Shown here piece after piece: positions 9,818 to 10,966 of a stretch of 64,000 bases of DNA. Origin of the DNA: Clostridia bacterium (GTDB taxonomy: Bacteria > Bacillota > Clostridia > TANB77 > CAG-465); contig JAVWPP010000001.1 in assembly GCA_036635835.1 (NCBI GenBank), positions 68,890-132,889 on the forward strand, read 5' to 3'. Both the position numbers and the translations under genes were made by a program. How positions within the stretch are numbered: the stretch's first letter is position 1; every line of letters begins with the position of its first letter. A model generated the notes under the pieces. That model was not told where the DNA came from, searched no databases, and saw only the letters and a program-made list of their open reading frames with translations.

Positions 9818-10462
9818 TTATCCGAATAATGATTCCATTGCACCTGTTGCAAATGTTAAGAATGATGCTGTTGCGAAAACTAGCACTAATCCAATAACTA
9901 GTGGGAACATAGATTTCTTAATATCCGCTTTTGCATCTGCAGAAGCAAACATGTATCTAATACCTAAAGCTACAACTCCAGCAAATGCCGCAACTTGTGC
10001 AACAACTGCTACTGTTTTAAACGCAGAACCTGTTATGCTTTCTATTGTTGGTGCTGAACTTACAAAAATTCCTTCTATAGCACCTGTTGCAAAGCTTGTT
10101 ATAGTGCTTGCTGAATAGAAAAACAATGCTCCTACCATAAGTGTTAAAAAACTTTCCTTTATATTTGCTTTTGCATCTGATGCAGAATAAATATATTTAA
10201 CACCTAGTATAATTGATGCAATTAAGAATATTGCGTTTCCTACTATTTCTAGCACATATTTCGCCATTTCTACTATTGGTTCTATAGCTGTTTTTAATCC
10301 TTCTGCTGACCCTTGATCAGTTTTTCCTTGATTAAACCAGCTAAATGCTGTTCCAAAAAAACCGTTAACAGTATCTTTTGGATTAGTATCTGCGGCTAAT
10401 ACAGCTGTGCACATCATCATTATGATAATTACAATAGGAATTACCTTTACTATTTTTTTCAT
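9818..10462 (-). CDS. Secreted pilin-like protein with an internally duplicated (tandem) VirB2/TrbC-like hairpin domain
   Basis: Start taken at MKKIVKV (RBS GGAGGAG 7 nt upstream). Signal peptide ...AVLA-ADT. Two repeats of the motif: LGVKYIYSASDAKANIKESF... and LGIRYMFASADAKADIKKSMF..., each followed by a hydrophobic helix. Confidence 0.55.
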   Translation of the reverse strand: MKKIVKVIPIVIIIMMMCTAVLAADTNPKDTVNGFFGTAFSWFNQGKTDQGSAEGLKTAIEPIVEMAKYVLEIVGNAIFLIASIILGVKYIYSASDAKANIKESFLTLMVGALFFYSASTITSFATGAIEGIFVSSAPTIESITGSAFKTVAVVAQVAAFAGVVALGIRYMFASADAKADIKKSMFPLVIGLVLVFATASFLTFATGAMESLFG

Positions 10463-10507
10463 GACTTCTCCTCCGTCCAATTATTTATATATACCTTTTT
10501 GTTTATT

Positions 10508-10843
10508 TTACATTATAGATTTAGCAGCCTCTACAATAAATTGTACTACTGGCTGTACTAGAAATACTAACATTCCACCTATAATAAGTACCACAGTTTG
10601 TCTTTTTATATCTGCTCTTGCGTCTGCCGCAGAAAACATATATCTAATGCCTGCAAAAAGAATAGCTGCAAATGCTAATACATTAAAAACAATTGAAACG
10701 GTTGCCCAAATATTGTTCATAAGCGGTTCAACATCTTCCGCTACACTTCCTCCACCTGGAATTGTAACTTGTGCTGCAAATACACTTGATAAACAAATGC
10801 AAATAACTATTATATTTAGTGTTATTTTAAACCATTTTTTCAT
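10508..10843 (-). CDS. Secreted pilin-like small protein (VirB2/TrbC-like topology: signal peptide plus two hydrophobic helices)
   Basis: Start at MKKWFKI with RBS GGAGGT. Signal peptide ...SSVFA-AQV. Motif AGIRYMFSAADARADIKRQ between two hydrophobic segments. Homologous to 23393..23746 and 23890..24237. Confidence 0.55.
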   Translation of the reverse strand: MKKWFKITLNIIVICICLSSVFAAQVTIPGGGSVAEDVEPLMNNIWATVSIVFNVLAFAAILFAGIRYMFSAADARADIKRQTVVLIIGGMLVFLVQPVVQFIVEAAKSIM

Positions 10844-10966
10844 TTTTACCTCCATATCATATATTGATCTATTTTTAGTATAACAATTTATATATAAATA
10901 GTCAATAAGTAATGCTCTAAAAAGCAAAAAGAAGTTCATCTTATTACTAAAACGAACCTCTTTTCA

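Follow-up and report, generated by a model that had tools for sequence, protein, structure and literature searches.

Tandem-fused pilin-like proteins in a predicted chromosomal type IV secretion cassette of gut Clostridia

What is the role of two small secreted proteins that are encoded side by side in a gut Clostridia genome, and why does one of them look like two copies of the other joined head to tail? The window analysed here, a stretch of 64,000 nt from contig JAVWPP010000001.1 (assembly GCA_036635835.1), contains in the flagged interval the two open reading frames (ORFs) in question, both on the minus strand: pil111 (10508..10843, 111 aa) and pil214 (9818..10462, 214 aa). A first description, made from the letters and ORFs without database searches (hereafter the sequence-only reading), saw in them VirB2/TrbC-like pilins, the longer one carrying two pilin domains. 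We conclude that both are probably Sec-exported pilins of the VirB2/TrbC family, belonging to a type IV secretion system (T4SS), one chromosomally fixed in uncultured endospore-forming gut Clostridia. For pil111, a predicted single-domain pilin precursor, the evidence comes from the ORF, its ribosome binding site, hydropathy, Pfam and the public assembly call; for pil214, a predicted tandem-fused two-domain precursor, it comes from Pfam, internal homology and orthologues in 38 loci.

The likely starts are ATG 10843 for pil111 and ATG 10462 for pil214, each with a GGAGG ribosome binding site 7-8 nt upstream, and the gene calls of the public assembly agree with both (111 aa and 214 aa). Two longer ORFs of 143 and 220 aa, reaching 10939 and 10480, are upstream extensions of pil111 and pil214, respectively. 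Both proteins begin with a predicted type I signal peptide (aa 1-23), made of MKK, a hydrophobic core, and then VFA-AQ in pil111 or VLA-AD in pil214. Hydropathy places helix 1 of pil111 at ~aa 48-64 and helix 2 at ~aa 84-103, on either side of a basic loop, GIRYMFSAADARADIKRQ; in pil214 it gives two hydrophobic helix pairs, with loops VKYIYSASDAKANIKE and GIRYMFASADAKADIKKS. The motifs AGIRYMFSAADARADIKRQ, LGVKYIYSASDAKANIKESF and LGIRYMFASADAKADIKKSMF were all found in the two proteins. The layout described for pil111 by the sequence-only reading (signal peptide with VFA-AQ, helix, motif, second helix) agrees with both sequence and hydropathy.

The same reading had divided pil214 into two tandem units, and this division stands: the two halves align with each other by BLASTP (E 2e-14), and both motifs quoted for them are present. 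Domain 1 spans ~aa 57-139 (~10046-10294, minus strand) and domain 2 ~aa 143-214 (~9821-10036, minus strand), as placed by hidden Markov model (HMM) and BLASTP. They are joined by an acidic linker of ~20 residues, and the N-terminal extension of the protein carries an aromatic patch, FFGTAFSWF. pil111 aligns with the two halves with E-values of 6e-12 and 3e-10, and an HMM made of 6 sequences detects the two domains with independent E-values (iE) of 3.5e-33 and 2.6e-32. The predicted internal duplication of pil214 is far beyond chance.

Net charges in the window proteins are +1 to +2 in the loops, and 0 to -3 in the N-terminus, linker and C-terminus. A similar distribution was found among pil214 orthologues (n=24), with a mean charge of +1.7 in loops and -1 in linkers; counting these as well, the loops span +1 to +3. 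Following the positive-inside rule, this charge pattern means that the pil111 hairpin fits an N-out / loop-in / C-out topology, and pil214 an N-out / loop-in / linker-out / loop-in / C-out topology. The secondary structure in AlphaFold models of pil214, which are of low confidence, also consists of two hairpins (H53-92/H97-133 and H140-172/H175-213).

Among curated families, pil214 matches T4SS_pilin (PF18895) over two stretches, with 31.2 bits versus a gathering cut-off of 26.6. pil111 reaches 20 bits with the same family, and has a weak match to NF045849 (Mbov_0395 family), with E 0.0022 and 17.6 bits versus a cut-off of 40. Relatives were then considered: all of the 15 single-domain ones match TrbC (best 5.4e-13) and 14 of these 15 match T4SS_pilin, while the two- or three-domain relatives match T4SS_pilin in 8 cases out of 8 (best 8.6e-13). 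The predicted TrbC/T4SS_pilin assignment is robust at the family level. The pilin likeness put forward by the sequence-only reading is therefore borne out, by the above cut-off match, by the relatives and by the adjacency of virB3 and virB4; the Pfam search that it had proposed, with holin, bacteriocin or immunity proteins as the opposite outcome, returned T4SS pilins instead. It was also correct in finding no type IV or Flp prepilin leader. A class III leader, G/F(T/S)LxE or G/xxxxEY, is absent from both proteins, the leaders being of the classical Sec type I, and neither protein has a Pfam or NCBIfam match to type IV or Flp/Tad prepilin families.

The pilin genes lie directly upstream of genes for a VirB3(PrgI)-like protein, two TrsD-like proteins and VirB4, as well as a pair of polytopic proteins and a large hydrolase of the cell wall; the coordinates that follow are all on the minus strand. 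The VirB3/PrgI-like protein (9375..9716, 113 aa) is a small predicted membrane protein with a central hydrophobic hairpin. Its own PrgI match (E 8e-4) is below cut-off, and 10 of 11 orthologues match PrgI, the best with 5.7e-7. A first TrsD/TraC-like protein (8140..9375, 411 aa) has an N-terminal transmembrane (TM) helix followed by a domain resembling the VirB4 N-terminus, according to a precomputed PF26593 TraC-like match and a weak match to the N-terminal part of VirB4_plasma. The second one (6361..7956, 531 aa), recognised by profile matches and paralogy, has a Q/P-rich repetitive C-terminus. The two are clear paralogues, and the 531-aa copy is the one kept in all related loci. VirB4 itself (4372..6360, 662 aa) is an ATPase with the Walker A motif GKSGSGKS and matches to TraG P-loop, AAA_10 and DUF87. 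Its best NCBIfam match is the CD1110-family VirB4, a conjugal family (223 bits), and the VirB4 of PDB entry 4AG5 was found with E 5.5e-24. Two bitopic proteins conserved in the cassette, with TM segments, follow p755, a polytopic protein described below: a 175-aa protein of family f5 (1550..2077) and a 285-aa protein of family f8 (684..1541). The gene of p736, a protein paralogous to p755, is cut by the left end of the window after its first ~126 codons (1..378); the rest is on the public contig (L001 11164-13374). Beyond that end lie p736, a 1245-aa hydrolase combining M23, C39 and glucosaminidase domains, three small bitopic proteins and an S1-domain gene. Taken together, VirB4, TrsD, PrgI/VirB3, a VirB2 array and a wall hydrolase are present, a VirB6-like component is weakly supported, and all ORFs of the window cassette are intact. 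Among the ORFs scanned in the 64-kb window, the rest of the genome not being searched, none was recognised as a relaxase, coupling protein or integrase, and the same holds for the ~10 kb around the cassette and the recurrent flank families in 79 species loci.

These 79 loci came from a scan of one genome per species, and all belong to gut metagenome-assembled genomes (MAGs) named 'Clostridia bacterium' or 'Clostridium sp. CAG'. The order [pilin array]-VirB3-TrsD-VirB4-polytopic-f5-f8-hydrolase is kept in ~77 of them, with 1-5 pilin genes per array. A two-domain pilin is present in 38 loci, window included, and it is directly upstream of virB3 in 38/38. Because the pil214 orthologues keep both domains at 30-38% identity, the fusion would be old and maintained by selection rather than an artefact; the fused ORF is also present in several assemblies of the window genome. 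The predicted tandem fusion is genuinely conserved, and widespread rather than unique. The sequence-only reading had called a double pilin unusual, which holds in part: full-text literature searches gave no description of fused VirB2 domains, nor of the chromosomal Clostridia system, but the fusion is not a one-off, being kept in 38 loci, and multi-domain forms, with 2 to 11 domains, are common in metagenomes.

How far this multiplication goes was seen in an exhaustive profile search, which returned 6,994 cluster representatives. Among the best 150 of these, 94 proteins have 1 pilin domain, 42 have 2, 10 have 3, 2 have 4, and one each has 5 and 11; these counts come from a ranking by summed scores, which favour multi-domain proteins, and are not population frequencies. 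In a 334-aa relative, counterparts of pil214 domain 1, pil214 domain 2 and pil111 follow each other in one chain, and the 5- and 3-domain pilins reside in the same type of cassette. One metagenomic protein of 1147 aa (P0065, L093 950-4393) has a single signal peptide, after which ~11 pilin domains follow in tandem; its gene lies on a short contig, beside a HEPN gene. Divergence differs along the cassette: VirB4 is 76-84% identical across >100 clusters, in a homologue search that returned close Clostridia relatives alone, and the pilins are 30-49% identical. The pattern is that of a conserved motor with fast-evolving subunits, predicted to be exposed.

The same cassette was also found on plasmids of C. 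beijerinckii CloBei18h (NZ_CP107023, L087) and C. botulinum (NZ_KT897275, L088). Their pilins of 136 and 127 aa are unannotated, and were detected with the family HMM only (E 1.4e-8); a tblastn search of the plasmids with pil111 gave zero matches. The plasmid cassette reads pilin-VirB3-TrsD-VirB4-polytopic-C39 hydrolase; most of its genes, the pilin included, bear the annotation 'hypothetical protein', and the type given for the plasmids is 'non-mobilizable'.

On the chromosomes, the flanks of the cassette fall into two stable housekeeping arrangements. In relatives of the window genome, the gene order is pgi-TraX-SSB-M23(-)-pilins-virB3 and so on. In a second clade (L048-L083), the array comes directly after mnmE-mnmG-rsmG-parA-parB-DUF4446, a flank which is the oriC region. 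The window itself departs from the contiguous array of related species, as its array is split by a 13-kb housekeeping block (10967-23146) containing rseP, cdsA, frr, pyrH, tsf, rpsB, ftsH, tilS, dnaB, probable rplI and gdpP; the ORF between dnaB and gdpP is named rplI from its size and position. On the far side of this block are two additional single-domain pilin genes of 115 aa, both on the minus strand. The first (23890..24237) encodes a protein 53% identical to pil111, and the second (23393..23740) has a coding sequence ~96% identical to that of the first.

A secreted M23 peptidase gene, divergently transcribed (24402..24938, plus strand), comes next; in 68 related loci it is directly upstream of the pilin array. 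It is followed by a gene (24972..25631, minus strand) that adjoins the array in ~33 related loci; its product belongs to the SSB family (E 9e-96 to the family representative), has an acidic tail and two OB folds, and may be either the housekeeping SSB or one dedicated to the T4SS. As a speculation, this conserved SSB neighbour and the lack of any relaxase seen might hint at DNA uptake or exchange. A TraX-family gene (PF05857) stands between pgi and SSB beside the pilin array in 27 related loci (for example L016 3794-4621), and is absent from the window. TraX is the family of the F-pilin N-acetylase. Other housekeeping genes in the flanks are pgi and spoIIP, and the rest of the window is housekeeping too, SpoIIP and SpoVAD included. 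The presence of these two sporulation genes points to an endospore-forming Firmicute as the host.

Pilin domains are not confined to small proteins. p755 (2093..4360, minus strand, 755 aa) is a polytopic membrane protein for which TM prediction, hhalign and Pfam give a signal peptide and a VirB2-like pilin domain, then 6 or more additional TM helices, and a domain at the C-terminus. In the family that it forms with p736, a complete pilin domain is present at ~aa 135-213 (GIKLAISVSAQQKAQYK); the profile of the family aligns with the pilin alignment over 78 columns (hhalign Prob 95.8%, E 6.6e-9), and the domain of p755 was detected with iE 1.1e-11. T4SS_pilin matches 8/11 members of the family, and TrbL_4, a VirB6 family, matches 2/11 (E 6e-4). 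In p755 and p736, a pilin hairpin thus seems joined to a membrane platform of the VirB6/TrbL kind, and the two proteins are candidate VirB6-like platforms. As to base composition, the G+C content is 35.5% at window positions 2001-4000 compared to ~29% elsewhere, the rise being inside the p755 gene.

Several results weigh against our interpretation. The score of pil111 with TrbC (PF04956) is 25.8 bits, ~2 below the cut-off of 27.9, and no solved pilin was detectable by PDB sequence search with the pilin profile. AlphaFold2 models of pil214 are of low confidence, with a pLDDT (predicted local distance difference test) of 58 from the single sequence and 52 from an 8-sequence alignment. Foldseek against the PDB with the pil214 model gave no match at E <= 0.001, the chains listed, V-ATPase c subunits and BAR domains, having E-values above 0.1 throughout; because of the low confidence of the models, this search is uninformative. 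The VirB6 identity of p755 and p736 is drawn from position, topology and weak TrbL_4 matches in 2/11 relatives, and hhalign of the p755 family against PrgH of pCF10 was not significant. Finally, conjugative pili have never been visualised on Gram-positive cells (bioRxiv 10.64898/2025.12.18.695078). Elsewhere in the cassette, PDB sequence searches with p755 and the TrsD-like protein gave nothing useful.

How does this cassette compare with known systems? Gram-positive T4SSs were described as lacking VirB2, except in Patescibacteria, by Guglielmini et al. 2014 (PMC4027160), Quinonero-Coronel et al. 2025 (PMC12102498) and a December 2025 review (PMC12857230). VirB2-like pilins in monoderms were reported in 2023-2025 only, with the Patescibacteria arrays and PrgF of pCF10 (PMC12102498, PMC12857230, bioRxiv 10.64898/2025.12.18.695078). 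According to a December 2025 preprint, PrgF is an essential VirB2-like protein, similar proteins are predicted on most Gram-positive conjugative plasmids, and these VirB2-like proteins assemble on VirB6 pentamers in models of the Gram-positive T4SS (bioRxiv 10.64898/2025.12.18.695078). The screen of that preprint dealt with plasmids only, and with proteins of 50-150 aa having 2 TM helices (bioRxiv 10.64898/2025.12.18.695078). Fused pilins were outside of this screen by design, because of these limits of size and helix number.

The closest likeness is with the Patescibacteria/CPR (candidate phyla radiation) systems, such as those of Ca. Southlakia epibionticum ML1 and Ca. Nanosynbacter lyticus TM7x (PMC12102498, PMC12857230), whose pilins are detected by the same PF04956 and PF18895 families. 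The Patescibacteria T4SS comprises VirB2 arrays, TrsD, PrgI, VirB4 and VirB6, has no relaxase, and is near oriC (PMC12102498). The two systems share at least 2 divergent pilin genes beside PrgI/VirB3, TrsD, VirB4 and a VirB6-like protein, M23/lysozyme-type hydrolases, fast pilin divergence with a conserved VirB4, and a chromosomal location without relaxase, often near oriC, here in one clade with the mnmE-mnmG-rsmG-parA-parB flank. They differ in their hosts, endospore-forming Clostridia here and an ultrasmall epibiont there; moreover, the pilins here are often fused, with 2 to 11 domains, and the polytopic proteins carry a pilin domain. Since no relaxase or coupling protein is found nearby, we liken the cassette to the relaxase-less chromosomal T4SS of Patescibacteria rather than to a conjugative element.

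PrgF of pCF10, from a monoderm, is likewise small and made of a two-helix hairpin whose loop is charged. Its gene is close to those of VirB6, VirB3 and VirB4, it is proposed to stack on a VirB6 pentamer, and Clostridium botulinum plasmids are among the examples of the preprint. In contrast to the proteins described here, PrgF has no signal peptide, and it comes from conjugative plasmids with a relaxase and a type IV coupling protein. No sequence similarity was detectable between the pilin profile and PrgF by hhalign (Prob 0.7%, E 0.079, 8 columns). The diderm pilins VirB2 (T-pilin), TrbC (RP4) and TraA (F) resemble the present pilins in having a signal peptide and a pair of hydrophobic helices with a basic loop, and by their virB2-virB3-virB4 gene order and TrbC Pfam family, with a TraX homologue beside the array in our relatives. 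The host here is a monoderm, however, without outer-membrane core complex, VirB5, VirB7, VirB9, VirB10 or VirB11, and with several paralogous pilins and tandem-fused domains. The Mbov_0395 family (NF045849) of Mycoplasma integrative and conjugative elements (ICEs) also has a pilin-like hairpin protein beside VirB4, in a wall-less Firmicute relative, but it is carried by an ICE and the score of pil111 is far below the cut-off. As an analogy only, with no homology claimed, the V-type ATPase proteolipid (16-kDa c subunit) offers a ring-forming hairpin protomer duplicated and fused into a four-helix subunit.

If pil111 and pil214 are pilins of such a system, a mechanism can be proposed. After cleavage of the signal peptide, the mature hairpins would form a pool in the membrane, with the N-out / loop-in / C-out topology. 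VirB4, with VirB3 and TrsD, would extract the hairpins and stack them on the polytopic VirB6-like platform; in established T4SS biology, VirB4 drives pilin out of the membrane and the subunits assemble on a pentamer of VirB6 (PMC12857230), as has been modelled for Gram-positive systems (bioRxiv 10.64898/2025.12.18.695078). The pilin hairpins built into the platform might act as template or nucleus for the first layer. What results would be a pilus, or a short conduit across the thick wall, which the M23/C39/glucosaminidase hydrolase would open. Cyclised T-pilin and TrbC show that the termini of the VirB2 hairpin lie outside, near each other. With both hairpin ends facing outward, fusion head to tail is topologically allowed and sterically plausible, and pil214, as a covalent dimer, could take up two adjacent protomer positions. 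The invariant place of pil214, its distinct N-terminal extension and the divergence of its first domain suggest that it is specialised, probably a minor, base-proximal or tip subunit rather than the bulk one; the filament or cap subunit proposed by the sequence-only reading is a matter of inference.

A broader proposal is advanced tentatively, as a possibility well short of probable. In it, endospore-forming gut Clostridia would assemble a pilus or conduit of the VirB2 type out of free pilins, covalently concatenated pilins of 2-11 protomers and VirB6-like platforms with a templating hairpin. Their chromosomal T4SS, devoid of relaxase and close to oriC, would correspond in free-living hosts to the essential T4SS of Patescibacteria, and its lineage might have been the donor of the latter. 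Its function would be to take up or exchange DNA, or to mediate contact-dependent interaction, and not to conjugate plasmids.

Must VirB2-like proteins necessarily leave the membrane? They could instead be channel-lining, assembly or regulatory subunits embedded in the membrane or wall, with no extracellular filament, pil214 acting as an adaptor or chaperone-like factor. Such a role is consistent with the fact that no pilus has been seen in Gram-positive bacteria (bioRxiv 10.64898/2025.12.18.695078), with the N-terminal extension of pil214 and its fixed place beside virB3, and with the pilin domains located inside polytopic proteins, unable to leave the membrane. However, several fast-diverging pilin genes flanked by strong promoter-like sites look like a bulk, exposed structural component, and labelling data on PrgF favour extrusion from the membrane in the Gram-positive T4SS (bioRxiv 10.64898/2025.12.18.695078). 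We regard the absence of any filament as unlikely on balance. Another possibility is an integrated conjugative element, of which the cluster would be the mating-pair-formation module or a remnant in decay, the pilins then serving ordinary conjugation. The VirB4 of the cluster does have relatives 30-40% identical on Firmicute plasmids, the conjugal family is its best NCBIfam match, and the same cassette sits on Clostridium plasmids beside integrase genes. Nevertheless, the absence of relaxase, coupling protein and integrase from the window and from the ~10 kb around the cassette in 79 loci, the conserved housekeeping flanks in two stable arrangements and the intact ORFs all speak against a mobile or decaying element, and VirB4 at 76-84% identity across the lineage indicates vertical inheritance under strong constraint. 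A conjugative element is judged improbable, more so than a system devoid of filament.

The least probable explanation, to which we give very little credence, is that the two proteins have nothing to do with pilins. They would be small secreted or membrane proteins (holin/antiholin, bacteriocin, immunity) mimicking pilins by their hydrophobic hairpins, or the 214-aa ORF would be two genes joined by an artefact of assembly or annotation. Hydrophobic helices do inflate profile scores, and weak matches to AmaP (pil111) and to Antiholin (pil214, E 0.085) were recorded; the latter, non-significant, was the sole trace of a holin, bacteriocin or immunity protein, and these candidates were rejected. 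Against mimicry, one of the two proteins scores above the curated cut-off of a Pfam pilin family, family-wide E-values go down to 1e-13, and the linkage to virB3 and virB4 is invariant. A PHROG search of the cluster proteins gave zero matches, and pilin relatives were absent from the viral contigs scanned. An artefact is hard to reconcile with the recurrence of the fused ORF, which the genomes of 38 independent species contain, as do several assemblies of the window genome.

If pil111 and pil214 are T4SS pilins, a large clade of ordinary spore-forming Clostridia would possess arrays recognisable by sequence as TrbC/T4SS_pilin, in a chromosomal T4SS with a set of components like that of Patescibacteria. 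For conjugative plasmids, the December 2025 preprint overturned the view of 'no VirB2 in monoderms' by structure-based detection of PrgF-like proteins (bioRxiv 10.64898/2025.12.18.695078). The arrays bear on the question whether the T4SS acquired by Patescibacteria already carried VirB2-like pilins (PMC12102498). Two architectures are without description in the literature searched, the head-to-tail pilins of 2-11 domains and the pilin domain in a polytopic VirB6-like protein, and both are testable handles on pilin nucleation and stacking on an inner-membrane platform. Culturable Clostridium strains whose plasmids carry the same cassette offer a route to experiments.

Signals that might control expression of the pilin genes were found as pattern matches alone, and are putative. 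For each pilin transcription unit, they consist of a strong promoter resembling the consensus and a terminator of the hairpin type. Upstream of pil111, a promoter-like site, TTGACT-17-TG-TATACT (10877..10905, minus strand), is preceded by a terminator-like hairpin after rseP (10925-10966). Between pil214 and the virB3-like gene, a palindromic GC-containing hairpin with a T-run (9790..9809, no strand assigned) may be an attenuating terminator separating highly expressed pilin genes from the machinery genes. Both 115-aa pilin genes have a near-consensus promoter-like site, with a terminator-like hairpin between them; for the 23890..24237 gene, the site at 24298-24269 is a perfect consensus and the hairpin is at 23875-23850.

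Some minor observations concern single genes. The window has two TrsD/TraC-like paralogues and its relatives have one. The C-terminal end of the 531-aa TrsD-like protein contains a Q/P-rich repeat, VARPLEQVIKQPQ, present three times. Away from the cassette, three consecutive paralogous genes of the AMP-binding family (acyl-CoA ligase-like), coding for proteins of 569, 647 and 568 aa, occupy window positions 31197-36723.

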